Shown piece after piece: positions 1 to 55,714 of a stretch of DNA of 64,000 nucleotides; position 1 is the stretch's first letter; every line of letters begins with the position of its first letter. The notes beneath the pieces were generated by a model. It ran no database searches. It was not told where the DNA came from and was given only the letters and a program-made list of their open reading frames with translations. The stretch comes from Isurus oxyrinchus (Eukaryota): positions 12,276,001 to 12,340,000 of the forward strand of contig JANJGN010000038.1 of NCBI GenBank assembly GCA_026770705.1, given 5' to 3'. A program made the translations under genes and the position numbers.

Positions 1-385
1 TTGATGTTGAACGCTTTAACTGTCAGATATAGTTTAGTGTTGAGCAGAGGCCGCAGGAGACTCTGGGCTCACTGCAGTGGGGAGAGACCCAGGGACCCAC
101 AGATGGAAAAACGCAGGAAATCCATCATTTTACTGTTTGCTTTATCGGGGAATTTTATCCTGTTGTGGGTAGTTTTATGATACATTTTGTTTGTAATAGG
201 CCATATTTGTTAGATGCTATTCCTGTATACCTTCCTAGGTTTGTGCAGGAACTGGGATTTATATTTCAGCTCCTGAGTTGTTGCACTAACACGGCCATTT
301 ATGCAGTGACCCAGACTCAATTCAGCAATTGAAGAATGTGGTGAAATATTCCTTTTCTGTAATTGTTAAATTTATTAAACAGTGA
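1..385 (+). pseudogene. GPR139/GPR142-like GPCR, copy A, 3' part (TM5 to C-terminus), frameshifted; truncated by window edge
   Basis: Frame 1 reads LMLNALTVRYSLVLSRGRRRL...DPQMEKRRKSIILLFALSGNFILLW, then a frameshift (TGA at 178-180). It resumes as ...QELGFIFQLLSCCTNTAIYAVTQTQF and, after a second frameshift, ...KNVVKYSFSVIVKFIKQ* (TGA 383-385). Collinear with the other copies in the window. Confidence 0.85.
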
Positions 386-1399
386 CAAGAATATCCATTA
401 TCAACACGAGTTGACCCTGTTTTATTCCCAATCTCTTCACCTCGGTGATGAGCACAGGGTGAGGCCAGTTTTCATCTTTCACCGCCAGGATTCAATGACT
501 AACAGAAACGGTGCATTTGGGAAGTAATTTACCTCAGTCCTGTTTGTCCTGCTGGTTTTCAGGCTATTCCAACTCTCCTGCTGTCCCTGGGCATGGTGTG
601 TGAAATTCCCACCCACCAGGCTCGAGTTTCATGTCATTACGCAAAGGGGTTTTGGAGGAAAAGGCCACTCAGGCAGGTTACAGTCCATGGGCGGACATGC
701 TGCAGTATCACAGGGAAACCTTGTTCAAAACATTTCGGACCAATCTGCAGATGGGAGGGTGGTTTCTAGAGGTTCGAAGGTCATTGATTTTAGCTTTTCA
801 AATTCTTTCTGTGATTTTATTCCAGTGTTATTAGAGCTGAACAGTTACAGAACCTCGGAGCGGCAAGTCTCCTCGTTTCAAATAATGGTGTATTTCCAAT
901 GCATAAGTTATGTTCCAGTGAAATTCGTCAATTCAAATGTCACTCTGAACCCAGCCTGAAAAAGGATGTTCAGGAGAGGAGAGAGAGGGGGGGCCAATGT
1001 GCTCGGATCTGAAAAAAAAAACAGAAAGGCTGGGAATAATCAGCAGCCCTCGCTACCTTTGTGTAGCGAGAAACGGACGAATGCTTCAAGGGCTTCCATC
1101 AGTGTTGTGATACTCTAAGAAATCCAAAGGCTTCCTCCTGCTGCAGCAGTAACTGAAGCATGTCATTTCAAAGTGTGAGGTGTGGGGTGAGGGGGGCTGG
1201 CGGCCTAAGTGGGGTTTTTTTGTTGTGGGGTTTGTGGTGCTGGGGTGGGGGGAGGTGTTTAGAGTGAAATATCAAACTTTGTCAGCATGTCACCAGTGGG
1301 GTACTGCAAGGAACACCACTTGAGAGCCAGCTGTTCACAACGTAGCAATGATTTGGATGTGTGCGTCAAATGTAATATTTCCAAGTTCGAGGATGACAC

Positions 1400-2295
1400 A
1401 AAGCTTGATGGGAACGTGTGTTGTGAGGAAGGTGAAAAGCAGTTTCAAGGCGATTTGGACTGACTTAGTGATGGGGACAGAACAGAAAAGATTAAATTTA
1501 ACCTGGAAGAATGTGAGGTTAACCAGTTTGGTAAGATCAGCAGATGTGCAGATTATTTCATAAAACGTGAGATCCGAGAAAATGTAGCTGTGCAAGGGGA
1601 CCTGGGTGCCCCCATCAATAAGTCTCTGAAACTTCACATACACATGAAGCACTTAGGAAGGCGAATGGAATGTCAGTCTTTATCACAAGAGGATTTGGAT
1701 ACAGCAGCGAAGTCTCGTTTCCTTTGTATATAATCTTGGTTAGGCCACCCCTGGGGTACAATGTGCAGGTGTGGCCCCCTTACCTTCGGAAGGCTGTAAT
1801 TGTCATTGAGGGAGTGAATCGAAGGCTCACCAGACTTGCCTCAGGGATGGCGTGACTATCCTGTGAAGAAGGATTGGGGACACTGGACCTGTATTCTCTA
1901 GAGTTTCGAAAAATGAGCAAAAATATCTCATTAACGCAAACAAAACACCTGAATGGAAGAAATTGTAAATGCAGGTCAGATATTTCCCCTGGTTGGGGAT
2001 TCTAGAACCAGGGGACACAATTTCAAAATAAGTGGAAAGCCACTACGACTGACATGAGGAGAATTGCTTTTTTACTCAGAAGTTTGCGAACCTTTGGAAT
2101 TCTGCATCCCAGAGAGCTGTGGAAGTTCTATCATTGATTTTGTTTAAAGCAGATAATGGCAGATTTCTAAATACCAAAGATATAAAAGGTATGGGGATAG
2201 TGCGGGAAAAAGATGTTGAAGTGGAAGGTCATCCATGATCACAATGAAAGGTGGGACACGTTCGATGGGCTGAATGGCATTCTCCTGTTCCTCTG
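1400..2295 (+). mobile_element. CR1-clade LINE, degenerate 3' part (RT C-terminus and 3' UTR)
   Basis: LVRPPLGYNVQVWPPYLRK resembles the CR1 ORF2 motif LVRPHLEYCVQFWSPYLRK. It ends in the CR1-type tail gggctgaatggcattctcctgttcct. Confidence 0.8.
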
Positions 2296-2344
2296 TTTCC
2301 ATGCAATAGGTTTGGATTTTTTTGCATTGTTTATTTGAAGGGAG

Positions 2345-2720
2345 CATTGTGGACAAAGCCAGTGTTTATTGCCATCCCTCATTTCCCTGGGGAAGATGTT
2401 GGTGGGGACGTTCTTGAAGAGAAGTTGTCCATCTGGTTTGGCTTGTCTGCAGCGGTTTGATATAACTCACGGTGTCCAGACTATTTCAGGACCAGCCACA
2501 TTGCTGTGAGTATGGAATCTCGTGGAGCAGCCAGAATGTGTGGAATTCTTGGAGATTACCAGAGATTTCATATTTAGACCGAAATCATCCCCATTCGTGA
2601 AAGGGTTTCAACTCCTGATTTTTTGACGGAAATTCAGCCAGTTGCTGTAACGGGGTTTGAACATTTCTTCAGTCTTTTTAGCTTATCCGCATTGTGACAT
2701 TACCAATACACCAGGATCTC
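2345..2720 (-). mobile_element. SINE (same family as 12575-12925), degenerate
   Basis: Reverse-complement matches to the tail (tttattgccatccct) and body (ccacattgctgtg...atggaatc) of the copy at 12575. Confidence 0.5.
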
Positions 2721-2924
2721 CCTGTCGGTGTGGAGGGGGCGGGGGCATAGCAGAGAATGCCTGGGATGATGTTTACAGCACTGGACAAACAACAGAAGAA
2801 AGAATGGATCCGCCGAAACTCTAATTGTCTGTTCCCACTGGGAAGCAGTTGTTCAGTTGCTCCGGTGGCTACAAGTGATTCACTCACACATCCATTCTGC
2901 TGAAACAACAAGGACACCCAGGTC

Positions 2925-3338
2925 CCGTTGCACATTCCCCTCTCTCAATTTATAGTCATTCAGAAAATAATCCGCCTTACTGTTTTTGCTACCAAAACGG
3001 ATAACCCCACAATAATCCACGTTATATTGCATCTGCCATGCATTTGCCTACTCACTCAGCTTGTCCAAATCACACTGGAGCATGTCTCAATCCTCCTCAC
3101 TGCTCACCCTCCCACCCAGCTTTGTGTCATCTGCAAATTTGGAGATATTACATTTAGCTCCCGCATCTAATTGATTAATATATATTGTGAATAGCTGTAG
3201 TCCCAGCACCGATCACTGCGGTAGCCCACTAGTCACTGCCTGCCATTCAGAAAAAGAACAGTTTCTTCCTATTCTTTATTTCCTGTCTGGCAACCAGTTT
3301 TCTATCCATCTCAATACACCATCCCCAATCCCATGTGC
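2925..3338 (-). mobile_element. CR1-clade LINE RT fragment
   Basis: Reverse complement of tttgtgtcatctgcaaatttggagatat encodes ISKFADDTK (RT catalytic motif). Confidence 0.8.
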
Positions 3339-3392
3339 AATGGCAGCGGTGAAAGAAAAATGCAGCCACCAGACGAGGGAAGTCCTGAATGG

Positions 3393-3643
3393 AAAAAGCA
3401 AAATATTGCTGCAGTTTCTGGAAATCTAAAACTAAACAGAAAATGCTGGAAAAACACAGCAAGTCCAACAGCACCTTTGGAGAGAAAGATGGGATTAACG
3501 TTTCGAGTCTGTCCGACTTTTATTAAGATAAGAAGACTCTGAAGTAGAATCATGCAGGCTCAAAACGTTAACACTATATTTTTCTCCACAGATGCTTTAA
3601 GAACTTAATAGTTTTTAGAACCTTTTCTGTTGTTGATTCAGAT
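3393..3643. mobile_element. Fold-back (head-to-head) Penelope-like terminus with target-site duplication
   Basis: Two inverted arms of the same terminal sequence that caps the Penelope ORF remnants at ~34925 and ~60985. Flanked by direct repeat gtcctgaatg (3382-3391 and 3644-3653). Confidence 0.7.
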
Positions 3644-3974
3644 GTCCTGAATGCCATTGCAGTAGAGGAAGGGAGAGAGATTGGGAGAGAGAAAGGGTTT
3701 TAGCATTAACTCCACTCATTCATAAATATCATTCCGAGTCTTGAAGATGTGTAGGTAACTTTTCTCTTCCGAACCCTTCCTATATTCAACAATAAGGAAC
3801 CTCGTGCCTGAACTCTGGGGCATTAGATAAAAGTGGCTCAGTTTCAGAAGGAAAACATTGGAAGATAGTGGGATATGAAGAGAAACTTCTGCTGTTATTC
3901 CCGTGATCGGGAGGCTCTGAAGTATCGTTTGACGAAACGATGAAGCAGGTAGAACGAAATCCCTGTGGTGATAA

Positions 3975-4183
3975 ATGCAAAATACCACGGATGCTGGAAA
4001 TCTGAAACAAAAACAAAAATTGCTGGAAAAACTCATCAGGCCTAACAGCATCTGAAGAGAGAGAAACAGAGTTGATGTTTCGAGTCCATCTGAAGAAGGG
4101 TCATAACGACTCGAGAAGACCACTCTATTTTTGTCTCCACAGATTCTATCAGACCTGCTGATAATTTCAGCGTTTTCTGTGTT
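3975..4183. mobile_element. Fold-back Penelope-like terminus
   Basis: gatgctggaaatctgaaac...agcatctg arm followed by its reverse complement (cagattctatcagacctgctg...ttttctgtg). Degenerate CTGAAGA...GACTCGA core at ~4090-4115. Confidence 0.7.
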
Positions 4184-5588
4184 TACCCCTGGGGTGATGT
4201 TCAGCGAGTTCAGGGAGATGGTATCAGTAGGAATGAGTTGATCAGGAATACAGTTCAAGATCACAGCAGAAGGGCGAATGACAGCGCTAATGGATTTAAC
4301 AGAAAAGGTGGAAGTGGAGAGTCGGCCTGTGTTTACTCGAATAAGGACCATGTATATGCTAAACGGAAAGGGGTGGGCCAGGGCGAGGTGCGGGCTACGT
4401 CTGTTTGTTTATTTAAGAGAAAATGCAAAGCCAGTGTCTCAGTATCCGATCGGCACCAGGATCTGTGAACAAGCCCCATGTTTATGGTTACTTACAGCAT
4501 AAAGTTAGACCCCACCTTTGAATATTTTCACGGTTTTGACCCCCCGTATGTCGAATAGACCTAAAGCTCTGTAATAATTTGCAGGATTTGTACTTAATAA
4601 TATATCAGTGCCAGTCCCTGGAAACATCCCTTGGTTTGTGCTCCATATTCTGCCTGTGTTATATATCTAGCTTGTGGCATCCCCACTTCAAAGTGTTTAA
4701 TCGGACAATGCAGAGGGATCTTTACCGTTTTTCTGACCCTGATTGCACCAACGGTGGGAGTGTTTGATGGGGTATTTTAAAGGAAGTTTTCTGCTCCAAT
4801 TTCCTGTCCTATATCAGCCTCCAATGAAGCCGAACACTATAGTTTAGAATTACCAGACATGTGACTGTGACCGCCCAGAGTGAAATCACCGAGGTGACCT
4901 TCCCTGTTCAATCATTTCACCTCGGTCAATTGCCAGAAACAGGCAGAGGTAAAAGTCTCCTTACACGGATGGGACGATGGGTGGCCCAATGGGGTCTTCG
5001 GTGCAAACAGATCCCAGACAAGACTGGTAAAACTGGGAGAAATGTGTAATAGGGAAAATGGAGCGATGTGAATGGGCCTTGGAGAAAGGAATCCAGCAAA
5101 GTCACAGTTAGTCCACTTTTCATTCCATTTTATTAGTAATATCAGAGAATATTTCACAAGAAAGTTTATTTTAAAGTTAACAGAAGTGAATATAATGCCT
5201 GAGGTCACGTTGGGAACAGAACACATGCACGCTGAGTTGGTAAATTGTATGTACCACTGGAACATAGATCAGAAAGAGAAAACTGTGGCTCAAAGGAAAG
5301 GGAAGCGGGCAATAATGAATAACGAATGAAAACGTTACTTAATTACAATTGAAATCCTACCTCTAGGGAAATTAGATGCTACAATTACATTACAACCATT
5401 ATCATCTCGCACATTTCATACATGAAAAAGGAAATACTGCTATAGGTTCGGTTACAGATTTGGGATCACAAATTGAAGACATTTCACCTTTAGAATCACC
5501 AAGACAACATATTTTATACTAGAATACAGAGATCTGAATAAACAGCTGAGGAAAAGCTACAGGGTCCAAACCTTTTCATTTGAAAAGA

Positions 5589-5597
5589 TCATTTGAT
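5589..5597 (-). other. Ig heavy-chain TM2 micro-exon (coding part), cassette 1: ATC AAA TGA = IK*
   Basis: Preceded by the polypyrimidine acceptor ttttctgcctcttttacag. Same position and acceptor in all three cassettes. Gives a K-I-K tail comparable to the canonical KVK of membrane Ig. Confidence 0.75.
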
Positions 5598-5744
5598 CTG
5601 TAAAAGAGGCAGAAAATAATGAAGCAGATGTTTATGATCTGGTGCATTCATATTATAGTTTTTAATTGTTGAAATATTTAGAAAGTTTTCAAACCGCTTC
5701 TGTCAGATTGTAGTGTTCAATCCACTAGGATTGAATATTCTCAC

Positions 5745-5872
5745 CTTTACCAGAGTGACGGCAGCGCTGTCGAAAATGCTCAGGAAGAACAGGACAATGA
5801 ATGTTGGAGCTATTGTCCAGATGTTCCCGTTATCGTCCTCATAGCCTTCAATCCAGATGCGGTCTGTTGAAT
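5745..5872 (-). other. Ig heavy-chain membrane exon TM1 (mu-like), orphan cassette 1
   Basis: 128-nt exon, tag|AT...AAG|gtgaga, phase 1 start. Reads (D)STDRIWIEGYEDDNGNIWTIAPTFIVLFFLSIFDSAAVTLVK: acidic spacer plus the antigen-receptor transmembrane (CART) pattern W-T-T-A-S-T-F-I-x-L-F-x-L-S-x-F-Y-x-x-x-V-T-L-x-K. Confidence 0.88.
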
Positions 5873-8179
5873 CTACACGGATATTACCGAGAGGTTGGCC
5901 AATGGGAACCTCAATTAATCTCAGCAAAAAAAAACAACAAATCATGTAATACATTTAAAATCATGCGATGTCGGAATGAAGCTGGAATTTATCCATATGA
6001 AAGTATCTGCTATTAGATAGAAACAGATAACACTCACGAGGAGAAAGATGGAAAGCCAAGGTGTCACGTCGACGCCATTTCATCAGAACATTCAGGTCTT
6101 CACCATCCAGTGTCTTTTGTTACGTTTGCGCCGTTGCTTTTTTGACTTGTGCAAGTTTGCCTACCATTTTATTGCCGTTTATTTATTTGAGGATAAAATT
6201 ATTAATATTTTATTTCAGTTTTGCGGTAGCTGAATGGATAACAAAGCTTAGCATTGCACTGCACAGATGGAGGCCAGTACACCCATTATTCCTTTTCCTG
6301 AAAGTGCTATTCCATTTGTCCGGTTCCAATGCTCTTTCTCATAGTAATTTATTTTCCTTTCTGAATAGTGATTCATTTTTGGAAGAAATATTATCCAGTC
6401 TGCTTCTACCACGTGTTCAGCTTGTGCATACACAGGTCACCATGAATAACTTATTTAAAATGTCCAGATATTCCCATTGGTTTTTTAACCTCTACTACCA
6501 AAGTAAAACAAACAGAAAAGAAATACAGAGAACAGGAATTGAATATAGTTATTACTACGGGTGCCAAGTAGCAGTAATAATCCATGGGGATAGCAACTTT
6601 AGCCACCATTTTCGACCGTGGACTTGAATGAGCTGATCTCAGTGCTGGGAAGTATAGTATAAAAAAATTGCGTACCACGCTAACTTAGGAAGGGCTGAGG
6701 TTTTGCTAATGCTAAGGATGAATGTGACCAAATACAAGAATATTAGAAACACATGAGGATAAATGGCAAAGTAATTTAATTCTGACCAAGATTGAAGATT
6801 AAGCCGAGGCAAACTATTGGTTGGAAATTATGATCTTAAATGAGATTAAGACTCGGGGTCATCCAGAATGGTAATGCTTCATAAATCAAGGAATGCCCAT
6901 TGAGATAAATGCCGCAACATTTGCAGATGATTGGGAAATTTCAAGTGACTAAATGTTCAAGAAGAATTTTTCACGAATATGTCCACTGAAGAGTCCACGC
7001 ATGTTGACTGAACGTCCAATCAGCACGTCAATAAAACACCCCTAACACTTTTGCAGTTCCGTTGATAGCTCATCAACCTGAAACGGTTACCTGTTTTTTT
7101 GTTCTCAATCCAGAGATGTTATCCAGTCAACGAAATGTGTCCAGCATTTTCTCTTGCATATATAAACAGTCTCCGAAGAGAGCAGAATAAATTAATATTG
7201 TATTTTTTTTCATGTTATTGGAGTGGGATATTGAGACAGACAAATTTTCAATGATCAATAATTGGGACTCAGAAATACATACTTTTATAGGTATAGAGAC
7301 GTTGGGAATAGGCGAATTTCGTGCAGATATTTAAAACACCTCCACGCATTTAATGGATAAAAAAATGACTTTTTTTAGAGCATGTCAGAGAATCGTTGTG
7401 ACTCAGGTCACATTGCGATCAACATGGTTAATGAACAGCTGTCCAATATTCAATTCTGATTCGTCGACCTAAGTGGCCAGTTAACTTTAATCGAGCTTCC
7501 TTATGCAAATACGTAAGCACATTGCAGGGTGCCGCACACAAATTAAAGAGAAGGTCCTGACCATTAAAGAGTGGCTGGTGCTCCAGGAAAGCAGATGCCA
7601 ATTTGATCCAGGAATGTACAAAGTATTGAGTTGATATTCAGAGTGCGTACTCCTGAGCAACCGTTGCTGCAAGTAAAGCCACGGAACAGATGGATGCAAA
7701 GTAATCTCAATATATAGTGGATATATGTCCATGAAAGGGAGTCTGTGCCATTCAACTTCACCAGGTAGGATCCATTTAATGGATGCGATACACTTGGCTT
7801 TTTCAGTCCTTGCACGTAGTTCATCTAGGAATCAGTTGCTAGAATCGGTGGATATATTTCACAAGGTGTTACTAGCATGTTGATGCATAGTGCCTATACG
7901 GCACGGATACAGAGATGAATTGGCCTAAAGTGGATATCCTAGAGTCTCCTTATTTGAACCTATTTTTTTAATGCAGTTGATAATGACCCGAAGCTCAAAG
8001 ACACAACAACAATGGCTGAATTTGTGGAGGGAACAAGGCTGTTGAAGATGGTCGACTGCAAAACCTGATAAAGATTAGCTCCAGGAAGATGTTTGGAATA
8101 GGAGAGACAGACAGTATTTGCACTTCAACAGATAGGAATGGTAAAAAATAAATGCCACATGTAGACCAGAATTGCAATG

Positions 8180-8790
8180 AGCCTTTCTTCGGTCGCTAGG
8201 AACTGTGGGAATCGATTGTTTAGAATTCTGAACAATTCATTAAGATATTTATGCTATGATTGGAGGAAATCTTCATGGGTTATGCTAGTGACATCGTTTT
8301 TGACACATTTTGACACCAGTTGATGCCATACACTTGGATTTCGAACTTAAATCCCTTAAGATTCCACACAAAGGTTAGTTCACAAGATGATGACTCATGG
8401 GTTTGAAGCGAATACATTAGCATGGGTAGAAGATCGGTCAATGTCGAGGAAGCAAATAATATGGTTTATCGGGCATTTTCAGGGTGGCAGGCTGGCAGGC
8501 TGTCACTAGTGGAGTGCCACAACTTTCAATGATGGCCTCTGCTACAATTTGCTTTAATCACTTAGGAAAAGACCTGGAAAATAACAGAGTTGCTGACGAT
8601 TCAAGGCTTGGTGCGGGTGCAAGCTGTGAGGAGATCGCAAGGAGGCTGAAAATTGATGTCGAAAGGTTAAGGGAGTGGAATTTCTATCGGAGTACAAAGT
8701 GCAGAAAAGTGAAGTCGTGCAATTTAGCGGTAAGAAAGTGAAACACAATGTTTCTAAATGATGTAAATCATGCAAATGTTGATGCTGGCT
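8180..8790 (+). mobile_element. CR1-clade LINE RT remnant
   Basis: WQAVTSGVPQ and ADDSRLG motifs in ORF 8484-8741. Confidence 0.7.
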
Positions 8791-8799
8791 GAACCTCGA

Positions 8800-9335
8800 A
8801 ACGGGCAAAATACAGAACATATCCAACGAGACAGTGCTGGTAAAGATGAAATTACAGTGTTCAACATTGGATGCGATTCGGAACTCGAGAACATTTGCTA
8901 AATAAAATTAATTGCACAAGGAATAACGCTGACAACCAACTCAGATTATCAGTTGGGCTTGCAGAGTGGTGCACTTGCATGTAATGGGCGCTGCATATTT
9001 TAATACACAGGACCCTGTTCTTTGTAAGCAAAAGTGACATGCACACACATTGTGCGTGGTTCAGCTAAACACAATAAGTGACAGCCATTCGCTGACTCAT
9101 TCCTCAAGGCAATGCATTGACTAATCAAGGCCAAGCTGCCTAGTTAAAATTTCAAACAAAGCTTAGGAGTTAACTTTCAGTCGCCATAATTCATGCATTC
9201 TCCATGATAATTCCTCTGCCGGAGTCCACTTGCCAAGCAATCAGCACTCTCTTCACATGCAGTATAAATTGTTGTTTTCCCCTTACATCGGTATTCTTAA
9301 AAAGTGACCTGACGAGTCAAAAAATGTTTCAAATT
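8800..9335 (+). mobile_element. Penelope-like element family 2, 3' end (ORF C-terminus plus terminal repeat)
   Basis: Degenerate ...HLLN...IISWAC...YFNTQDPVLCKQK, homologous to the minus-strand copy at 11700-11870. Followed by the terminal repeat also seen at 16470-16830. Confidence 0.6.
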
Positions 9336-9339
9336 GGAG

Positions 9340-9830
9340 GAAGATTTCGCCAGGAGTTGGTGTCAGCACCCTTTTTCTGGATATATATAATTGCTTTGAC
9401 TTGAGTGTACGTGACATAATTTCAAAACTTACAGATGTGACAAAACTTGGAAATATTGCAAACTAATGTGATGGGGGTGCTGAACTTCCAAAAACCATGG
9501 ACAGATTTATAACATGGGCATACAAGTTGGCAGCTTAACTTTAACATAGCTATCTGTCAAGTGAATCACCTTCGAATGAAGAATAAGGATAAGAAAACTC
9601 GAATAAAGGATATGATTGTAACGGGATTGCAGGAGCTAAATACATGTTCCATATGTTTATAAATCGGCATACAGGAAGCTTGATTATATAAGTAGCAATC
9701 TATGATAAAAACACAAGAACGGTTTGGCTCAGCTGGAGCATTTGAGTCCAGTTCTGGGAAGAACATTTTGCAAGGATTTTATAGCTTTTGAAATGATGAC
9801 AGGGATGAGGAACATCTGTCACAAGTTGTC
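9340..9830 (+). mobile_element. CR1-clade LINE remnant
   Basis: atttcaaaacttacagatgtgacaaaacttgg (ISK.ADDTKLG-like) and cagctggagcat...ccagttctgg (LEY..QFW-like). Confidence 0.6.
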
Positions 9831-10075
9831 ACTTGGTAGTATAGAATTACGTGTATTGCTGAAAATGAGGAATAAGTTATGGAAGCTTATTGTCTTGCAC
9901 TCATCATGAATCCCGAATTGCAAATGATCACAGAACTCGAAGCTGATTGGCCGAGCACAGCCACGGAGAATGCAATGGAGAGCCGTTAGCTCCCCATGAT
10001 TTTAGGCAACTCAAAAGATGACCTACCATCTAGAACCTCAGCACTATCCAGGACAAAGCAATGCGGTTGACTGGC

Positions 10076-11269
10076 GCATTCGATACGGTGCAACGTAAAA
10101 GATTATTGCACAAGATAAGAGCTCACGGTATTGGGAGAAATGTATTAGTATAGATTGAGGATTAGATAACACACAGGATACAGAGAGTCTGGATTAATGG
10201 GTCCTTTTCAGACGCATTGGAAAGACGCAACAAATGGAGTGCCAGAAGTATCAGTCTTGGCGCCTCAACTATTTATTATCTATTGCAATGACTTGGAGGA
10301 GCGGACAGAGTGTGATGTATCCAAATTTGCTGAAGATACAATAGGTGAGAAGCCATGTTGTGAAAGGACATAAGGAATATAAAAGGGGTTGTAGATAGGT
10401 TGAGTGAGTGGGAAAAAAAGAAAACACTTGGCAGATGGAGATTAATGCAAGAAAGTGTGAGGTCATTCACTTTTGTAGGAAGAATCAAAAGGCAGACTAT
10501 TATTAAAATGGAGAGAGACCCCAAAAACATGCAGGATCTGATTGTTCTTGTGTACGAAACACAAAACGTCAACATACAAATGTAACAAGTAATTAAGAAG
10601 GCAAATGACATTTTGGCCTGTGTTGCTAGGGGTTTACAGTTTTAAAAATAGGGAGGTCTTTTTACAAATGTGCTGGCTTCGGTGGGGCCACACCTGGAGT
10701 GCTATGTACAGTTTCGGTCCCCGTATTTAAGAAATGATATATTGGCATCAGATGCAGTTCAAAGCGGATTCGTTAGGCTGATTCCTGGGATGAAGGAGTT
10801 GACTTATCAGGAATGGCTGAACAGACTAGGACTTTATTTATTAGCGTTTAGAGGAATGAGGAATTATATTATTGAGATGAACAGAATCTGAGGGGAGGGG
10901 CTGTTGGCAGGTGGATATTGAGAAAATGTTCGATCTAGTGGCGGAATCTCGAGCTAGGGGACATAGTTACATAATAAGGGGCCACTCATACAAAACTGAG
11001 TTGCGAAGGAATATCTTCTCTCTGAGAGTATTGAATGACTGGAATTCTCTACCCCAGAGAGTTGTGGAGGCTTGATCTCTGAAGGTATTTAAAAAAGAGA
11101 TGGATAGATTATTGAAATATCGTGAGTTGATCTTCATGGAGAGCTGGCAGTACATAGGAGTTGAGGCCTGGGGCAGATCAGCCATGGTGTTATTGAATGG
11201 GGGGGGGGGAGGGTTGGACGGCCGAATGGCTTACTGATGTTGCAATTTCTTATTATCACTTGTCTATTA
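10076..11269 (+). mobile_element. CR1-clade LINE, 5'-truncated, nested in an older LINE
   Basis: AFDTV...GVPE.SVL, SKFAEDT, VGPHLECYVQFRSPYLR motifs and a CR1 3' tail (ggccgaatggcttactgatgttgcaatttctt). Confidence 0.85.
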
Positions 11270-11680
11270 CCACCCCATCGACAAACATTCAGTCCCTGCA
11301 GCACCGATGCAAAGAGGCAGCAGTTGTGAACAACCTACATAATGCATTTCAGGATCTTACCAAGGCTTCTTAGACATCATCTTACCAATCTACGATCTCT
11401 ACTGCCTGGAAGATCAAGCACAGGAAATGAATAAGAACACCATCGGCTTCAAGTTCTCTTCCACGCCACACACCATCCAGACTTTGAATCAGATCATCGT
11501 TCCTTCACTGTCATGGAGGTGAAATCTTTGAACTTCCTCCCTAAATGCACTGTACCTGTATGTACACTACATGGACTGCAGCGGTTCAAGAACGCGGCTC
11601 ACCATCAACTTCCGAAGGACAATTAGTGATTGGCAATAAATGTTAACCTAGCCAGTGAAGCGTAATTCTGCACACAAATT
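11270..11680 (+). mobile_element. 3' end of a second LINE family (same as 44225-44865); its upstream part is at ~10030-10075
   Basis: actatccaggacaaagcaatgcggttgactggc (10045-10077) joins caccccatcgacaaacattcagtccc (11271), matching the uninterrupted copy at 44430-44490. Confidence 0.75.
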
Positions 11681-11699
11681 TTGAAAGACCTTGGAAAAT

Positions 11700-12550
11700 T
11701 AATTTAGCTTGCAGAGATCCAGTCCTTGTTTATGAATGCATGTTGCCCCTGACAAGTTTTAATGAGCCACGTGACCAACTTGACGGATCACCTTGAAGTT
11801 CTTGCTACTGTGCCGCAATTAGCGCACTCAAGACTGCTCAACGAATGCTGACCAATCGTGGAATCGTCTCTAATTGTTGGAGTTTTGATTCAAGTTTTAC
11901 AAGCGCGGGCTGCTTCTGTTGGATCTTTGTTCTGTATATTATGAACCGGGTGGAGGGACATTTTGTTTGATTCGACCAACCAATCGCTGGGACCTCTGAC
12001 TCACTTGCCTGGTGCTGGAATTCATACACGGCGTTACTCAATTGCCTGATGAGTAGAAACTTGGTTTGTTCTATTCTCTTCAACTGATTCGTGAACAGTA
12101 CCACTCGTGTCGCTGTTGCATCATGACAACATTTTTTTTGTTAACCTGGAGTTCCAATTTTGGGCTACTTGAGTCTTCCAGGATAACTTGAGATATACCC
12201 AGGTATTTTCAGGCCCGAAAGGGAAGGCTGTGGCCATTTTGCGAGTTTGTCTAAAGCACTGCGGACAAAGAGACTGCAGATATATTTTTGTATACTTGCT
12301 TTTCAAATAATTTAATCTATTTCGATGAATTATTGTTCCTTATAATTGGTTAATTGAGATACAATAGTTTAAAACTGAAATAAACTTTCTTCAAATATCT
12401 GGATTGGACAAATTAAACCAATATGTTGGTTGAAGTACAATCGTAAACTGAAGGGAGATACGTATCCCCAGTGTAACCTAAAGCAGCGCAATTGTATGTG
12501 TGATTTCTTAAATTCTCTGTTTCTCGGTATGTTTTTTCTCTCCATTTCAT
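11700..12550 (-). mobile_element. Penelope-like element family 2, GIY-YIG endonuclease region, degenerate
   Basis: Minus strand reads SNAVYEFQ...SQRLVGRIKQNVP...DSTIGQH, resembling the Penelope GIY-YIG signature SNVVYxFxC...YVGxTxxRLxxRIxQH. Confidence 0.65.
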
Positions 12551-12574
12551 TGGGATGATGGTGGCGCCATCGCA

Positions 12575-12925
12575 CTGTCATAAAGCTAATAATCCAGGTG
12601 TCAAGGCTAATACTTTAGAGACAGAGGATCAAATCAAACCAAGGCAGCAGATAGAGTTTCAACTCGTTGAATGAATCATAAATTATGAAACTAGCCCCAG
12701 CAATAGTGACCATGGAACTATCACAGTTTGCTGTAAAATCCCATCTGGTTCACTTAATTAGCCTGGTCTACTTGTGACTCCAGTCCCACAACAATGTGAT
12801 TGACTCTTAACTGCCCTCTGAAATGGCCAAGTAAGCCACTCAGGACAAAGGCATTAGGGATGGGCAACAAATGATGGCCTGTTCAGTGACATCCAGGACA
12901 TGTGAAAGCATCAAGAAGAAATAAA
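12575..12925 (+). mobile_element. SINE with tRNA-like head and LINE-derived tail
   Basis: Body gtgactccagtcccacaacaatgtgattgactcttaactgccctctgaaatggcc. Tail attagggatgggcaacaaatg is shared with the LINE 3' ends at ~11620 and ~44800. Further copies at ~24290, ~41090 and ~51755. Confidence 0.7.
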
Positions 12926-16430: not shown

Positions 16431-16469
16431 TTGTTTGGTAGAACAGAATGTGAGAGTGCTGATCAAATA

Positions 16470-16830
16470 CACATGCTTTCGAAGCTCTTCATCTTGGACT
16501 CATCAGGACAATTCGCAAGAGTAAGAAAAAAGTCAAATGGAACAACACTTTTAACGTCATGAGAAGAGTGTGATGATTGATTGGCGAGTGAAAACGGATC
16601 ACTTGTGGCATTGCAATAGAGAATGCGATAGTGACTTGATGAATGGAAGTTAACTGTCAACCATTGTTTACATTCAAATCAAGTATGTTGACTCTGATTG
16701 GTCAATACATTTCATGAGGGCATGAGCCAGAGACTGGTTCTCCCGTCTTTTGATCAGTTGAAATAGGCACAACTCTTGCAAATTGTCCTGCTGAGTGCTA
16801 GACCATAAGTTTCTACAACATGTGCATTTT
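16470..16830 (-). mobile_element. Penelope-like family 2 terminal repeat
   Basis: Reverse complement aligns with 9050-9330 (ttgaccaatcagagtcaa, ccaatcaatcatcacactcttctcat, gtcctgatgagtc). Confidence 0.6.
16478..16509 (-). ncRNA. Minimal type I hammerhead ribozyme-like motif (partly mutated)
   Basis: Minus strand GTC-CTGATGA-GTC-CAA-GAT-GAAG-AGCT-TC-GAA: core CUGAUGA, 3-bp stem II, GAAA variant, palindromic stem III (AGCT), UUC cleavage triplet. Confidence 0.5.
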
Positions 16831-36850: not shown

Positions 36851-36901
36851 TGTAACAGTCTTTCGGTGTAGCACAGAGCACACTCGGAGCTTTTGAGAGA
36901 A

Positions 36902-41089: not shown

Positions 41090-41380
41090 TCATGTTCATG
41101 GTCTAGTAAATCTGAAGGCAAGGTTAGTGATTCAGGGACGAAAATGTACATCCCAGCACGTCAATTGATGAACATAAGTTCAGTTCACGAAAGTAAGCTG
41201 AAAATTAAAAAAAGAGCAATCATGAATGATGACCATGAAACTACAGCATTCTCATGAATTAGCACAATCCGTTTCATTCATATACTTTCGTGAAGGAATT
41301 CAGTTGTCTTTCCCAAGTTTGGCCTCTATGTGACGCTACGCCCAGGGAGGTGCAGTGGAGTGACAACTGCCCCCTTAACT
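41090..41380 (+). mobile_element. SINE (family of 12575-12925), degenerate
   Basis: gatgaccatgaaactac...ccgtttcattcatatactttcgtgaagg...ggcctctatgtgac. Confidence 0.5.
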
Positions 41381-42829
41381 GGCCTTGCAAGCGGGAGCAA
41401 ATGTTTGAAAATAGAACCGATGGAACACCCGGCATCGAGCTAAGCACCAGAAAAAACAAAATGACAGTCAGCTCTGTCGATCCTGTAAAGTCTTCTTCAC
41501 ACACATGTGGATGCATGAGATCTGCCCCAGAGAGCAGTCAGGCAACAGGCTGACATAATCATATTTCGAATCGTACCGTTCCGCCAATATTCCAGGTTTC
41601 TATCACCATTCAGAGTTAGGTTCGGCCATACTGCGAAAAAAAAATCTTACAGTGTTGGGCGTTTTTGTCCACAACTAGAAAGTGTCCTGCACCAAACTGG
41701 CCCAATGACAATTAAATAATGATTAAGTTCAAATACCTCTTTGATGTTTATTTAGAACAATTAGGTCTCCTGACATTAAGTAAACTTGTTATCTTTAAAA
41801 GAGCCGAATCTTTCCACTCAAAATGAATGTCTCTATTGATTGGTTAGTTTCTCTGTCACTATCAAACAACCTATCATTTACGTTTGCATATTTGCAGTTA
41901 GTCTTGGAGCCAATGCATTTATGTTGCAGGACACCCATCACAAAACATGTGTCACACTTTGTTACAAATATATAAGAATTTTTTAAAAAGGAGAGTTCTG
42001 GCGACAGAACAAGAAGCTGAAACTTAAATTAAAAAGTAATTATCCTCTTGGTTGGATTTGTGCATTTTGAGAAATTGCTATTAAAGTGGAGGTCTGGTTA
42101 GCAGTTAAATGTAACAATTGTGTTTCACCTCTGAGACGACACGTAAACAACAATGCCCGATTTCAAGCTTAGTAAACTTACAGATCGACTTCCATTTCAA
42201 AGTATTTTCTTAATTACATGTTCATTTGAGCTTTGTGAAATTAAGAAGACTTCATGATTTAAATTAGTGTGTTTTCTATGATCGGCTGGAATCTACAAAA
42301 CAGGGATTGGAAATTATATGTAGAAAAGCAAACACGGGTTAATAAATCAATGAAATAGAATTGCTCTGTTTTAGGCCACAACTTGGTCCGTATCTCATCT
42401 CGGTTGAATGATATGCTTGAATCCCTGATTACTTTAATTTTTACACTTAAGGTATTTGAACAAAGCATAGGTTGTAAAAAGTGATACTGTAATTAAGCCA
42501 TTAGAGCCAGTAATCACAAGCTGAAAAAGATGAAAGTAATTCAAAGGCAACTATGTAACATGGAAATAAATCTGAAAATCTCATAAAGAAACAAAAAGAA
42601 AAAACATTGGAAGTTATCACCAGCTCCCTGACAAAAGCAGACTCACCGAACTGGGTACAATACACAGGGGTCTGTGACTGTGCCGAGTCTATTTTAAAAT
42701 AATTCTCCATAAATAACATTTAAAGCAGCGGTGATATGATGCTTTTCTAGTAAACGTCTAAATAATCCCTTGCGGAGCTCTGACAAATGTTCCCTGCAGA
42801 GAGCGCATTGTTCCATTTACGGGGGAATC

Positions 42830-43090
42830 AACATTATTTTTAGGGGACAATGAATATTGCATTCAGGGGACATTAATGATTGAATTTAGGAGAAGATGAT
42901 CATTGTAGTTAGGGGACATTTAAAGATTGTATTTAGCAGCTAGTGATCATTATGGTTATGGGACAGTGGTCATTGTTTTAGGGGACAGTGAAAATTGTAT
43001 TAGGGGACAGAGATCATTCCAGTTACAGGGCAGAGAGCATTGTATTTAGCGTCAGAGCAGACTATATTCAGGGAACCATTGTCATTCGCA
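42830..43090. repeat. Minisatellite, about 22-23 bp unit (tcattgtatttaggggacagtga-like)
   Basis: Repeated taggggaca / tcattgta words. Confidence 0.75.
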
Positions 43091-43099
43091 CCGAACTTA

Positions 43100-44200
43100 C
43101 GAATTCGGTACGTGGGGGTGGGAGGGGTTGTGCGCAGTAAGTGCCCCAGAAGATGCACCCGGGCCCCCACAGGAATTTCTCATGTAAACATTACACAGAT
43201 ATTGCGCAAGAACTTCAAACTTCCGATGGGAAATTATCCTGGATGCCTTGGAATCATCTGGAAATGAAATTTAAATTGCAGAACCTACGTAGCTCCACCA
43301 CTCTTAGCAGAATAGGTATCCAGGAAAAGTTAGGGGATTTGAAATAATTTCCTACTTCCCGATTCCCCACTTGACCCCGAATATTCCCCTCCACCATTCC
43401 TCACTCGGTTGCCCTGATTATCCTCCTGACAGCCCGACTACCTTCCTACCCCACCCCCGTGAATAACCCGACTAAAAAAACACCACCCGATTATTCCTCC
43501 CTCCACAAATCGTCTCACCTATGCCTCGACTGACACCCGCAGACACAAAATACCCCTGGACTAATTCTACCCCCTCCGACCCATCCTACCTACTCCACCT
43601 ATCCTAATCCCAACGTATCCTATTCCCCTGAACGATGCTACCACCCTACCCTTCCTATCCCATTCCACCTACACTAAACCCGGGACCATCCTATGCCCCT
43701 GACCCATACTGCCCCACTCAACTCATCCAACCAGCCAGCCACAGATTACATCACTGAATCATCCTACCATACTTCACCATTCTACCCCTGATCCATCCAT
43801 CCCGAATGGCACACCCAACCCCACTCACCCCGTCCTACCTCCAACCCATCATACAGCACTCCAAGTATCCTACCTTGAAGCACCCAATTCTCCTAGCCCA
43901 ACCTACGCCCCTCAACCCATCCTGCCTCCAAGGACTATCCTACAGTCTGGACTATTCTAACCCACTCGACCTATACTACCCACTCTACCTCCCCGACCCA
44001 ACAGACAGCCTCTGCCAGCCAACCCGTCCGAACATTTCTGCCCCGAGCAATCTTGCCCCACTTGAACTGGACTACAAGCCCGACCATTCCTCAACTGCCA
44101 ACGAAACCTATTCCTGACACAAGTTACACTACGTCAACTGTTCACAACACCTTACACATTCTGTCAGTTCAAAGCATCCTATCTCACGCCGGCTTTTCGA
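43100..44200 (+). repeat. Dispersed repeat with unique core and C-rich low-complexity arm
   Basis: Core cttagcagaataggtatccagg is the reverse complement of cctgggtacctattctgctaag at ~48769-48790. Followed by a long C-rich tract. Confidence 0.55.
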
Positions 44201-44224
44201 ATCCTGATCTACTCTTCTCCTGAC

Positions 44225-44865
44225 ACATCCATTGACTAGAAACTGAACTGGGCTAGCCATCTAAACACTGTGGCTACAACAGCAGGTAAGAGGCTAAGTA
44301 TCCTGCGTCGGTTAACTCACCTCCTGATTCCCCAAAGCCTGCCCACCAAGTTACAAGTCAAGAGTGTAATTAAGTACTTCCCACTTGCCTGGATGAGTGT
44401 TGCTCCAACAGCGCTCACGAAGCTTGACACCATCCAGGAGAAAGCAACCCGCGGGATTGACCCCCCCATCCACAAATATTCACTCCCTCCACCACCGGTG
44501 CACAGTGGCAGCACTATTTGCCATCTACAAGATGCACTGCAGGAATTCACCTTAGACAGTACCTTCCAAACTTCCGGCCACTTCCTTCTTGAATGACAAG
44601 GGCAGCAGATATATGGGAACTCCAACAACTGGAATTTCCCCTCCAAGTCACTCACTGACTTGGAAATATGTCGCTGTTCCTTCAATGTCTCTGGGTCGAT
44701 ATCCTGGAACTCCCTCCCTAACAGAAACATAGGTGTACCTACACTACATGGACCACAGCAGTTCAAGAAAGCAGGTCAGTAATACCATGTTCTCAAGGGC
44801 AATTACGGGTGGGCATTAATTGTTGACTGGACCTGGGACACCCACATCCATGAATGAATAAAAAA
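44225..44865 (+). mobile_element. Non-LTR retrotransposon (CR1/L2 group) 3' end, second LINE family
   Basis: ORF 44270-44596: AGKRLSILRRLTHLL...QVKSVIKYFPLAW...KLDTIQEKA, typical of the post-RT region. Ends gggcaattacgggtgggcattaat...tgaatgaataaaaaa. Confidence 0.8.
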
Positions 44866-46908
44866 ACTGTTACAGAAGCATCACTTTACCCTTTGACTTT
44901 TTAATTGATATTGTGCCTAATTGTGACGAAGTATTGATATCCGACTCTAACATTGACGGAGTAAATGATGCTTTGGTCAAATACGTTGAATGACCACATG
45001 TGTTGGGCTCCATATCCTCTTGTAAGTAATTGACCAATTTTGAAGGATTTTCTGCGGTGTGCTCGCACAGATTGCCTGAATAAACAAACTTCCCTGATGG
45101 AAAGTCACGAAGAGTTGGGCTTGTGATTCTTATACAGTTTTTGACATATGCAGTGTTTAAGCGTACAAAAGAACCAAAAGTCGTTTTTACTGATCAGGAT
45201 GGTTTTCATTACTCTGAATGGATATGCACAATGTAAATCTATTTACTGTACCGTGAACTGAGGCTGTAACAGAAAAGGAGAAAAGCTTTGCTACAGCTGT
45301 ACAAATCCCTGGTTAGATTATATGCTGGAATACTTGTATAGTTCTGGGAACGAAACATTAGAAATGATAAACATTGGTCTAGAAGCAGGCCGGCACTGAT
45401 CTACCAGAATGCTTGGAAGGTTTTAATATTTAGACTCAGGCACCATGCCAGTTATTACAGCAGGACAACTGTTGGATTCCGCCTGGTGCCTCAGCTTGAA
45501 ATGAATTTCAGGATGTTAGAGTCAATGTGCAGCAAATATCCAAATGTATAACTACTTTTACTCAATCATTAGTAATACCATGCAAATTCAAACAACTATA
45601 CTCAGTATCTGTTCCATGATTCAATGTTTAAAATCAAAGTTGTAATATTTGTATTCTCATTTTGAAATTAGGCACTCTCCACTTTGCAACACAAAACGAG
45701 TTGTAAACCTGGGGGAGTTGCACCATTTGTTGCAGCGAAGAAACAACTCTGGCCTGGAGTGCTGTTTTCAAAGGTCAGTTGTGATCGGTTGATCAGGAGT
45801 AATGTGTGTATCTGTGTAAACAGCAAGCAGAAACATCTGTCCCATTGCAACCCATATTCAGCCTTACACCACCATCTTTAGTCAGTTAACTTTTTGTGCA
45901 TTGTGCATTAGCACAGCCCATCTCACCCCTTTCCTTCACTTCTAATCTCTGCCTCTATAGCTGTTCTCGACCAGTGGACACAGTGGGTGGGGGGGAAGGG
46001 GGGGGGGGTGGTGGTGGCGTGGGGGGGGCACTTTACTCCGCACCTAACCAGTGCTGTAGAGGCCTGGGAATATTTTATGTGATATGTAAAGAACGTATTC
46101 TTCCACAAACATTGTGCTGCATTAACCTCTGAGGAAGAGTGCCTTTATTATTTAGAACGACCAGACGCTGACTGTGACAGATCAGAGACGTCACTGAGTT
46201 GCTCTTCGCCATTCCATCATTCTGCTTCTGGTTTTCACCATAAAAGGGAAGGGGTAAACATTTCTTTACACGGGTGTGGCGTTGTGTGGTGAATCGCTCT
46301 TTGACTGAAGGGCCTCGAGTTCAAACACTTTGCAGACAGGAATCGTGATAAATACCACTCGGGAAAGGAGGAAAACGTGAAATAGGGAAAATGCAGCCAT
46401 GTCGATGAAGCGAGGAGAAATGAATTCAGCAAAGTCATACTTGGTGCAATTATCATTCAAGATTTATTAACAATTTCAGAGCATGTTTTATAGAAATGGT
46501 TCATGTAAAGGTCACAAAAGTGAATTTATCGTTTGAGTGTCACATTGAGACAACCCCATATGCTCTGAGCTGCCAACTGTAAGTAGAAGTGTAACATAAG
46601 CCAGAAAGAGAAAACAGAAATTTAGCATAAAGGGAAGGGGACAACAGCGAAAGAAAAGTCATATTTACAAATGCAATTCAAGCTATAGTGAAATTATAAG
46701 TTACAGTTATTTTAAAATAATAATTATCTCGCGCATTTCAGACAGAAAAGCGGAAATACTGTCCACGAATGTCTCAATTACAGATTCAGAATCATAAAAT
46801 GAAGACATTTCACTGTTAGCGTCACCAGGAGAACATATTTTAAAGTCACAATACAGAGATCTCAATAAACAACTGAGGAACAGCCAAGGAAGTCCGAAAA
46901 TCAACCGA

Positions 46909-52680: not shown

Positions 52681-53047
52681 GTTCATCTTGGAATGTGGTA
52701 ACAAATCAGATATATGACACTTTGCCGTCCACATGAACGTAGAGATACTACGAGGACTACAGGGACCCTGGATTCTGATGGGAATAAGACAGACCACAGA
52801 AGATATGGGGAAGAGAACATTTAACTACCAGAGAACAGATACTGACCCTTAATTGTGCTCGGATGTATTGCGCCTTTAACAGTCTTATTTTCAAACTGAG
52901 TGACTGTGAACTAGAATGGAAAACAATGCTTGGCATCGACAAGAAGGGGAAAGGATGGAATCTTGTGTACAGTTGAAGTTGGATTTTGCTGTCCTTAGCG
53001 TCCAAATAATTTAACAATTTCAAGTAGTGGATATTTCACCCCATTCT

Positions 53048-55714
53048 TTAACACCTCTCTGAATTTACTCTGGTCGCTGCATAAATAAACAGGTTTGCGC
53101 AGGAACTCAAAAACTGAAGCATATATGCTTTTTCCTCAAGAATGAATGTTGAAAGATTGATTTCAGAGCTTGATAAGTATTTAACATTTCCAATTTGCAC
53201 ATAGAGGAAAATTATAAAAATTAACAAATATAACAGGATGAAATTTCCCGATATACAGAAGAGTAAAATGATGGACATTGTCCGCTTCTCCATCTCAGGG
53301 TCACGCTGATTGTCTCCATTTCTCCGGGTCTGGAGTCTCCTGCGAGATCTACTGGCTGCGAGAATGTGTCTGACTGTCAGGACATTGAGCAGTAAAATCA
53401 GAATGAATGGGAGACAAGGGGTTAAAATGTGATGAATGCAGTCATAGGCGATCCATGCAAGTGAGGTATAAAATATCACTTTTACATCGCAGAACCAGGG
53501 CACATTGTCAATTATGTACAAAGATTCGTATATAAAATACTGGAAGGTGTTTTTGACACAGCTGATTGTGCAGATTGTCCCTATAACCCATGCCGCCGTT
53601 TTTTTGGAACAACATTTTACTTTCAGCTTCTGGCAACAAATGGCCACAAATCGATCAAAGGTGAAAGCTGTAGTTAACCAGGCAGAGCTGTCTATGGCTG
53701 AATATATTAGGGCTTCACGGAGACTGCATACTGGTGTGATTGACAGGAAACTGAGTGGGAAATAAATACCAGCAGTCCGGTTCAATATCACAGCGGTTAT
53801 AATGAGCAGGAGATCTGACACCGCCAGGGATTGTAAATAATAGGTTATACAGGTGGAGATACCGCATTTCACTCGAGAAAGGATTACAATCACCGCCAGG
53901 TTAGCTGCAATAAAGAGAGAGAGAGAAAGAGAGAAGTTGGAAAGAGACTGAGTTTGTGTATGTGAGTTTGGGAGAGAACGAACACAGGAAGGTTACTGCT
54001 CAAACTATAAACAAATCAACAATTGTATAGGATTCTGCATGAATTTGTACATTTCAGATGTGTTCCCCAGTTGCGCAATTGCAATGGGCAAGTGATTCAG
54101 CTTTGTAAATTGAAATCTTAATTCAATATAGGTCAGGTCAAAGTTATATGAATGTCAAATATTTTAATAAAAACTAATGGAGAACAAAAGACATCGTTAA
54201 CACTGAGAAACCAACGTAGAATTTCTGTATAAGCAAGAAGAAAGTGTACGCATTGCAGGAAATAATGACGAAGGTAAGTAACAAAACAAGCAACAAGAAG
54301 TGTGGAAACTAACAAGGGCACGGATTATATCTCACTGAAGATCAATATAGTTCCTTTCCTATATAATAATTGGCAATAATTATTGAAAATTATTCGTTGT
54401 TGTGAACTTTGGGAATTAGACCTGCTCAAAAATATCGACATACAGCGAGGAGTAAAGGGGCAATGAATTTTTTCTGATCTTCCAGACAGGGTGTTTGCCT
54501 GCATGTGAAGATACATTCTAGCTCCTCACTTATAGTCAACTGGAAGATCGGTGTCGATCTGAACCTTTGGAATTGGCGGAAACCGAAGTCTCCTTCCGAG
54601 TGAGGTCCCTCTTGCAATGCAGCACTGACTCCGTACTGCACTGCACTTTCGGGATCAACTATCAACGTTGTCCTGTAATGGATATTTCAAATCAAAGCAT
54701 TGCGCCTGAGATGCGAAAGATGCAGCCAAGTAGGCAGCCTCATTCAATATGGACAAACAGTGGAGACGGGAAAATGTGGGACATTGCCCGGTGATATCAG
54801 CAGAAGGAAATTCTGGCGTCAACAGTGGTCAAGTCAAAGCGTCAGCAGCAGCTCATGAACAAATTAGTGTTGGAGACTGAGAGCAGAAACACACCTGTGT
54901 GATCGTGGTGCTAATATAGAATATTCATCAAAAGTCTATTATTACATTGCTCATACATCTGTCAAAAACTGGGTGCTCATGATGTCCTTCCATCAAATTC
55001 ATTGGGGGAATATTGAATGTTACATTGCTCTCTATCAATGAAACATTCGTGGGAATTGTTCGATCATTGTCAATGCGAACAGCACAACAGATTTACATTT
55101 GCACCGTGAAAACAGTGTGATAGCTCATCCACAGTTCGACTGTCAATAACAGAAGATGATCCATTTCACAGTGTGTTTAAAGTGTGATCACATAACCACA
55201 GTTCGACTGTCAGTAACAGAAGGTGATCACAGGGTAATATTTTACCATTAACGGCGAGAAATTGCACACTTTGCAGGGTGATATGATAGCACTTAAATTG
55301 TGAAATTTTGTTTTTAACAAGGTTATATTATGCCACTAACAGCGAAGAATTGCACCTTTAATAGCATATTATTAAGCCATTAGCGGTGAGAATTTTAGGC
55401 AAAGGGAACAAATTATATTGTCAAAATTGAGACATTATACCTATAAAGTGGGGAAAATGTTCTTTTAGAGGGGTAAAATATACTTGTTAAAAGAGGGAAA
55501 TTGCCCCATTAATGGGGAGAATTGTACAGATAAAGGGCGGAATGGGAGAATGGGTATAACGTTATGGATATACAATGCTTTTAAAAGGTAGAATTCCTGC
55601 AGACAACCGATTTCCGTATCAAAATACTAATTACAATACTTTACCTGGAACCCCGAGAGCTGCAAGGACTGGATAATAAATGGCAGACAGAAGGTCTTTT
55701 GGTGATCCATGCAT
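53048..55714 (-). CDS. GPR139/GPR142-like class A GPCR, copy E (exon 1 55645-55714; exon 2 53048-53904), 308 aa, C-tail altered by a 1-nt deletion
   Basis: Exon 1 MHGSPKDLLSAIYYPVLAALGVP (G|gtaaag) plus ttgcag|CT AAC CTG gives an uninterrupted frame through seven hydrophobic segments, with LAVSD (TM2), TFDRF (TM3) and SSCANLFIY (TM7). The YYxxLxxxGxP|ANx split across the single intron matches GPR139 gene structure. The ancestral tail QSKFREVLKNGVKYPLLEIVKLFGR* (stop 52995-52997) lies in another frame. Confidence 0.8.
55220..55560. repeat. Degenerate minisatellite (taaaggggagaattgtac-like units) in intron of copy E
   Basis: Recurrent taa..ggggagaa(a)ttg words. Related tracts in the introns of copies B (~19830-19980) and D (~37000-37360). 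Confidence 0.55.

Follow-up and report, generated by a model that had tools for sequence, protein, structure and literature searches.

The window analyzed here, a stretch of 64,000 nucleotides (nt) from the genome of Isurus oxyrinchus (contig JANJGN010000038.1, positions 12,276,001 to 12,340,000), carries copies of a G-protein-coupled receptor (GPCR) gene family. Translated self-searches and frameshift-aware alignment located five near-complete exon-2 copies (A, B, D, E and F) and one fragment (C) in both orientations, as an earlier note on this DNA had described. The features are listed below, in which TM denotes a transmembrane helix.

1..45985, no strand: an arm of a segmental duplication in inverted orientation (about 90-93% identity), with its counterpart about 150-200 kb upstream
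1..385, plus strand: copy A, a pseudogene of which the 3' portion of exon 2 is present, from TM5 to the C-terminus
17801..18708, minus strand: copy B exon 2, with stops at codon 108 (replacing the R of DRF) and codon 160
20090..20159, minus strand: copy B exon 1, 70 nt with a phase-1 GT donor; intron of 1381 nt
20229..20245, minus strand: copy B conserved promoter element, a homeobox-like core beside an O/E-like half site
30800..30961, plus strand: fragment C (TM1-TM2), within a 1.9-kb tandem duplication 5' of D
32703..33602, plus strand: copy D exon 2, an old pseudogene with six stops and two frameshifts
36818..36832, plus strand: copy E conserved promoter element, an O/E-like site
36902..36971, plus strand: copy E exon 1, 70 nt; intron of 1260 nt
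38232..39130, plus strand: copy E exon 2, with a 12-bp deletion in TM3 near 38458 and a TAA at 38678-38680
52995..53904, minus strand: copy F exon 2, with a 1-bp deletion at 53073, directly after TM7
55645..55714, minus strand: copy F exon 1, 70 nt, with the ATG at 55714; intron of 1740 nt
55784..55800, minus strand: copy F conserved promoter element, followed by a TATA box

Copy A, whose exon 2 starts approximately 512 nt before the window and whose exon 1 lies approximately 5.3 kb further up, has two frameshifts, the first from the loss of 1 bp near 174 and the second from the loss of 4 bp near 329. The tandem duplication 5' of copy D (29070-30949 versus 30990-32864, 78% identity) includes fragment C, and a pattern search found no exon 1 for D. 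The frameshift in copy F leads to a 308-aa product without helix 8, which ends at a new stop at 53050-53048. This deletion was common to 19 of the 30 closest F-like paralogous loci examined and was thus inherited through duplication, by which a sequencing error as its origin was ruled out; the truncated F-type copies showed near-neutral ratios of nonsynonymous to synonymous substitution rates (dN/dS of 0.69-0.87, six pairs). Whereas the earlier note had counted four copies with independent lesions, all five are broken, and not every lesion is independent.

The receptor features of these copies could still be read in part. Copy F and both halves of copy E matched the Pfam domain 7tm_1 above the cut-off, and the piece of B tested against this domain gave no match above it. 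Since the first exon of B, of E and of F measures 70 nt up to a GT donor, the N-terminus is very short, as had been proposed. The DRF motif attributed to TM3 was readable in E and F only; B has a stop in place of the R, D has lost the motif, and that of A is located ahead of base 1. The TM7 variants NTAIY, NLFIC, NTFIY, NPFIY and NLFIY were all present as described, but their variety partly reflects decay, because the intact duplicate of B reads NPFIY and Y7.53 is kept in 58 of the 59 open-frame members of the family. The window is a pseudogene cassette, and its own receptor copies are dead.

The other arm of the inverted duplication carries intact A-, B- and E-like genes, the E-like one having a TATA box approximately 57 nt before its ATG. 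Nucleotide identity to these upstream duplicates ranged over 94-96% (A, 96%; B, 94%; E, 94%), and the nonsynonymous to synonymous differences (27:5 for A, 43:14 for B and 29:23 for E) are consistent with A and B decaying and E having been lost more recently. Within 464 kb around the window (contig C38), 15 long exon-2 loci were found, of which 5 were intact. Cassettes like that of the window also occur on another contig (C42), in blocks with 84-97.5% identity to C38. A divergence of 2.5-16% would be more than expected of alleles, and haplotype redundancy as the whole explanation was rejected for the compared C38/C42 blocks only, not genome-wide.

To estimate the size of the family, pattern searches were run over the whole genome. 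A 26-nt TM3 pattern had 1,276 exact matches (control 0) and 3,896 when two mismatches were allowed (control 23), while an independent pattern spanning TM5 and intracellular loop 3 (ICL3) had 3,133 (control 10), so that the genome-wide copy count is large. Detailed annotation covered 1.264 Mb in five cluster regions, which were chosen and not random, and yielded 51 loci. Exon 2 is intact in 21 of them, cut short in helix 8 in 3, and open in 2 others for which no acceptor was found; a further 20 are broken and 5 are fragments. Intactness was called on exon 2, and exon 1 was confirmed for part of the genes. The two looser motifs detected 37 and 38 of these 51 loci, and extrapolation from the five non-random regions gave approximately 4,200-5,300 loci with about 1,500-2,100 intact genes; among motif-selected loci outside the sampled regions, 12 of 30 had an open exon 2. 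Intact and broken copies side by side, together with the duplication of whole cassettes, bear out the birth-and-death evolution that the earlier note had suggested, and as in chemosensory families, the repertoire is large and clustered. Members occur in sharks, in rays and skates, and in a chimaera (Callorhinchus). The family is very large and real, and apparently undescribed; a full-text literature search, whose coverage left out most subscription papers, found no published description. Apart from this, a long same-strand array at G000:C21:83.2-85.7 Mb alternates two distinct receptor motif variants, which suggests a two-gene tandem unit.

Such numbers could also arise passively, if unstable repeat-rich regions and assembly redundancy had brought a few dozen functional subfamilies to thousands of copies, in which case copy number would say little about the repertoire. 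The 30 of 51 sampled loci that are broken, truncated, fragmentary or without a found acceptor fit this explanation, as do the spread of the near-neutral F copies and the zinc-finger clusters and retroelements, encoding a reverse transcriptase (RT) and a GIY-YIG domain, that adjoin the receptors. Identical copies on one contig (L080/L081 and L098/L099) fit it as well, and assembly redundancy may inflate the family counts. We nevertheless regard it as improbable, considering the divergence of the long duplicated blocks, which would exceed that of alleles, the approximately 130 representative sequences inside the family clade (most of them representatives of clusters at 50% identity), and the selection described next.

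Pairwise dN/dS among open-frame genes was 0.34-0.44 with kappa 1 and 0.48-0.58 with kappa 3, and even young duplicate pairs (at least 93% identity) gave 0.42-0.53; the intact members are under purifying selection overall. When dN was set against pooled dS, the inner TM halves showed 0.22-0.48 and the extracellular loops 0.46-1.24, with genes reused between identity bands. For our own codon models, sets were cut from the 59 sequences by linkage at 78% identity and by removing near-duplicates. In a 15-gene subfamily, model M2a was preferred over M1a with a likelihood ratio test (LRT) statistic of 85, with 8% of sites at an omega of 3.8, and all 12 sites with a posterior above 0.9 lay in the outer half of the receptor (Fisher p 1e-4), ten of them in extracellular loops (ECL) 1-3. 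The signal was robust to realignment (LRT 82) and to analysis of each third with its own tree (LRT 20-26), and 15 null simulations gave an LRT of at most 3.0. Positive selection in this one subfamily is thus almost entirely in the extracellular loops, and diversifying selection on the ligand-facing side is what would be seen in a chemosensory-type repertoire.

The proteins are class A GPCRs, having a 7tm_1 domain, seven helices and the class landmarks N1.50 (59 of 59), D2.50 (59), R3.50 (58), N7.49 (59) and Y7.53. A database search returned 1,493 matches, the best 120 of which showed 55-75% identity, 119 of these being named from sharks and most bearing the automatic name "probable GPR139"; a lookup in the ESM Atlas returned automatic names only. 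A phase-1 acceptor early in TM1 is common to the family, GPR139, GPR142 and two further genes, L074 and L262, and this intron, with GPR139 as the nearest characterized relative, places the family in the GPR139/142-like clade. The true GPR139 is, however, a separate single gene in the same genome (L072, 95% identical to the GPR139 of another shark), as is the true GPR142 (L073). Both a quick tree and a FastTree tree grouped the family with a salamander gene (Shimodaira-Hasegawa-like approximate likelihood ratio 100 in the quick tree), beside the L262 and L074 groups and amphioxus genes and apart from GPR139 plus GPR142. A mixture-model tree of 34 rows kept the family with the salamander gene (92/99) and left open the order of the deeper lineages. 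As outgroups, these trees had two genes that we take to be somatostatin-receptor-like and two long-branch unnamed proteins. In the approximately unbiased (AU) test, a clade of the family with GPR139 excluding GPR142, as expected of an orthologue or descendant, was rejected (p-AU 1.5e-5), whereas a single clade of the family, GPR139 and GPR142 was absent from the best trees and yet not rejected (p-AU 0.06). Placement of the salamander gene with the coelacanth group, a hypothesis named after the trees were seen, was rejected as well (p-AU 0.0016). The description as GPR139/GPR142-like therefore holds for the shared intron and for GPR139 as the nearest relative of solved structure by sequence, and fails as far as a clade with GPR139 alone is concerned; the family is separate from GPR139 and GPR142 and only their distant cousin.

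The two further genes are single-copy. L074 (G000:C6), which is GPR139-like and automatically named GPR139, forms a separate lineage with orthologues in sharks, rays, chimaera, coelacanth, lungfish and teleosts and relatives in a caecilian and a lamprey. L262 (G000:C9:126711631-126715614, minus strand), 59% identical to the coelacanth gene P0462, is orthologous to a GPR139-like group from coelacanth, teleosts, frog and crocodile and has an in-frame TGA in ECL2, possibly a recent loss.

The earlier note had proposed a repertoire sensing amino acids or small molecules; as amino-acid sensors like GPR139 and GPR142, the receptors would hold Trp- or Phe-type ligands in the same pocket. According to the available text of PMC5430874, GPR139 responds to L-Trp and L-Phe, its activation needs F3x33, H5x43, W6x48 and N7x38, and N271 is required for the Trp/Phe responses; R6x51 is described there as a modelled polar anchor whose mutants failed to reach the surface, and its anchor role therefore rests on the model. 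Some of these features are partly kept in the 59 open-frame members, which have an aromatic residue at 3x33 (Y in 51, F in 2), W6x48 in 48 and H5x43, the H187 column, in 32, and the intron is the same. In contrast, R6x51 remains in only 2, with 13 different residues at position 6.51, and N7x38 (7.39, the N271 position) is N in 6, although GPR139, GPR142, L074, L262, the coelacanth gene and amphioxus all retain R6.51 and the salamander gene has K. Most members thus lack parts of the GPR139-type amino-acid pocket, and the amino-acid ligand of GPR139 should not be carried over to it; with a clade with GPR139 alone rejected and the true GPR139 and GPR142 lying elsewhere, we consider amino-acid sensing of this type very improbable. 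A predicted model of the intact homologue P0001 had seven helices and an ECL2 hairpin (pLDDT 74), and a fold search with it returned near-equal matches to many peptide receptors (NTSR1, CCKAR, GPR15 and GPR139; E 3e-9 to 7e-9), which do not point to a ligand.

A compact promoter is common to six subfamilies, whose exon 2 sequences are 68-79% identical. In the 170 nt that precede the ATG their identity was 61%, as against 40% in distal and 39% in intron controls, with aligned E-box-like, homeobox-like, O/E-like and TATA-like elements. A tight homeobox plus O/E pattern had 53 genome matches, on contigs with family clusters. In the parts of the papers available to us, odorant receptor (OR) promoters are described as carrying HD, O/E and TBP/TATA motifs (PMC12547500) and, for OR enhancers, a composite of neighbouring Lhx2 and Ebf sites is described (PMC5608512). 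The compact shared promoter gives no more than a hint of sensory neurons.

Sequencing runs recorded as RNA contained no match to copy F. Contigs from six presumed-RNA runs, which have no tissue label, included pieces of family paralogues at 80-95% identity; no exon 1-exon 2 joint was seen in them, and one exon-1 contig continues past the donor. As the tissue label is absent and DNA may be present in these runs, the contigs are not evidence of transcription. In the portion available of the supplement to one shark spleen study, no GPR139/142 entry was found.

An alternative is an immune repertoire, in which leukocytes or barrier epithelia would carry the intact receptors and use them to detect peptides of microbes or parasites, much as FPRs or MRGPRs do, with pathogens driving the loop changes. 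Positive selection in ECL1-3 and not in the deep pocket fits this proposal, and contigs of several paralogues (none at least 95% identical to E) in four of four presumed-RNA runs from three studies would fit a cell type that is widely distributed. Lymphocytes would also be in keeping with the E-box, EBF-like and forkhead-like promoter sites; the homeobox cores and TATA boxes fit promoters of the OR type. The scan of 77 long open reading frames (ORFs) in the sampled clusters found no immune gene, and the presumed-RNA contigs have neither tissue label nor splice joint. We judge an immune role unlikely, though a serious candidate.

Taken together, we interpret the window as a decayed duplicate of a multi-gene cassette whose intact family members are likely cell-surface sensors of outside molecules, probably in chemosensory cells, a reading to which we give a probability of about 0.5; the chemosensory reading leads and the immune one comes next. 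The two-exon class A GPCR genes expand through segmental duplications that copy entire cassettes; many of the copies die, those that survive are under purifying selection, and in one sampled subfamily positive selection alters the outer loops while the inner core is held. The changed loops may set ligand choice, which would suit peptides or larger water-borne ligands better than free Trp or Phe in a GPR139-type pocket. DRF, ICL3 and helix 8, which are conserved, would couple the receptors to a G protein, and the shared promoter could drive expression in sensory neurons.

Several observations weigh against this chemosensory interpretation. The clusters adjoin C2H2 zinc-finger genes and retroelements, that is, regions that duplicate regardless of function. 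Of the 32 promoters, only 7 contain the strict pair in which a homeobox site adjoins an O/E-like one (against 32 of 6,315 background windows); these seven belong to the C38/C42 clade and so are not independent. Sites of the EBF, E-box and forkhead types are compatible with promoters of B lymphocytes as well. As for selection, the M2a tests by thirds leave gene conversion within thirds outside the model, the 15 positively selected genes, with 63% identity to copy A, do not represent the B, E and F subfamilies, and a second set of 7 genes gave only p 0.028 with one site, in the pocket. In addition, the catshark list of the top 50 brain and olfactory genes in the portion of PMC11979771 at hand has no GPCR, which says little for a sparse family.

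In a bolder and more tentative form, the family may constitute a fifth olfactory-type family of cartilaginous fishes, derived from the GPR139-like peptide-receptor lineage and numbering about 1,500-2,000 intact genes here. Homeobox/O-E promoters would drive its sparse expression in sensory neurons of the nose or skin, its outer loops would read peptides or other large water-borne cues, and bony vertebrates would have kept at most a relic copy of it in salamanders. According to the sections of PMC10116579 available to us, the OR, TAAR and V1R families of sharks are very small and their V2Rs number a few dozen (a catshark has 34 v2r genes, as against 4-9 for the remaining families); surveys of shark chemoreceptors, as far as PMC10116579 and PMC11979771 were accessible, count only OR, TAAR, V1R and V2R, and the latter cites 1,948 OR genes in elephant. 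If sensory, a hidden family comparable in size to the largest mammalian OR sets would change the picture of small shark chemoreceptor families, and a fifth olfactory family, if true, would mean that shark olfaction does not depend on only about 50 receptors, as is currently held; if immune, it would be a new innate receptor repertoire. For assays, the window copies are poor candidates, and intact duplicates lie just upstream. New here are the relatives in single copy and the one in salamanders, the loss of the anchor arginine, the positive selection focused on the loops and the inherited lesions.

As regards the neighbouring sequence, four of the 77 scanned ORFs encode zinc fingers, and C2H2 zinc-finger and RT plus GIY-YIG sequences adjoin the receptor cluster. 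A C2H2 zinc-finger cluster (L056, L060, L063 and L065) located 40-140 kb downstream of the window fills a 184-kb gap between receptor copies, and this gap sits inside a large inverted duplication. The young RT plus GIY-YIG elements at L034, L048, L053, L058 and L063, presumably Penelope-like, are 96-98% alike, and one of them has an ORF of 926 aa. Within the window, an inverted-repeat element of approximately 1.1 kb lies at 61016-62153 (arms 61016-61270/61900-62153 at 83% and 61273-61420/61682-61829 at 79%), with related pieces at 3352-4235 and 57630-58468. Dispersed copies (72-79%) of a repeat element lie at 3352-5891, 57630-60167 and 46373-47678, and a LINE-type reverse transcriptase fragment (Pfam RVT_1) at 15574-16044. 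In the C46 receptor cluster, L217:4257-8048 (minus strand) is an open frame of 1,264 codons with no Pfam match, which may be a repeat array.

Compared with known receptors, the family resembles GPR139 and GPR142 in its phase-1 intron and short N-terminus, and GPR139 (PDB 7VUG) was the best PDB match of an intact member (E 8.6e-11); the same search with copy F gave no match. It differs from them in being only about 30% identical, in its thousands of copies and in the loss of R6.51, P6.50 and N7.39 from most members. Models of sharks and rays named "probable G-protein coupled receptor 139" in RefSeq belong to the same family as the window copies, and other members bear the names "capa", "sex peptide", "FMRFamide" or "GPR15" receptor-like. 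All these names are automatic and suggest orthology to a single gene, for which the tree gives no support; many "probable GPR139" genes of sharks and rays are not GPR139 orthologues. Among the bony fishes, the accessible part of PMC6504862 describes GPR139/142-like subtypes "GPR210A" and "GPR210B" and a set from gar and coelacanth, with no occurrence of sharks and no mention of an expansion of this group. L074 and L262 represent two further single-copy lineages of the same clade with relatives in coelacanth and teleosts, next to which the quick trees place the shark family. The salamander "probable GPR139" genes (P0453 of Pleurodeles, P0511 of Ambystoma and P0514 of Lissotriton) make up a single cluster on a long branch, with five records in the three species; they group with the family, have family members as their best matches in this genome and keep W-x-P-K in TM6. 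The salamander gene is the nearest non-chondrichthyan relative found. Finally, the clustered birth-and-death pattern, the many pseudogenes, the diversifying selection on the outer face and the compact promoters are shared with OR, TAAR, V1R/ORA, V2R/OlfC, FPR and MRGPR, from which the shark family differs in belonging to another GPCR lineage, with a coding intron, that is not counted in the available sections of PMC10116579.

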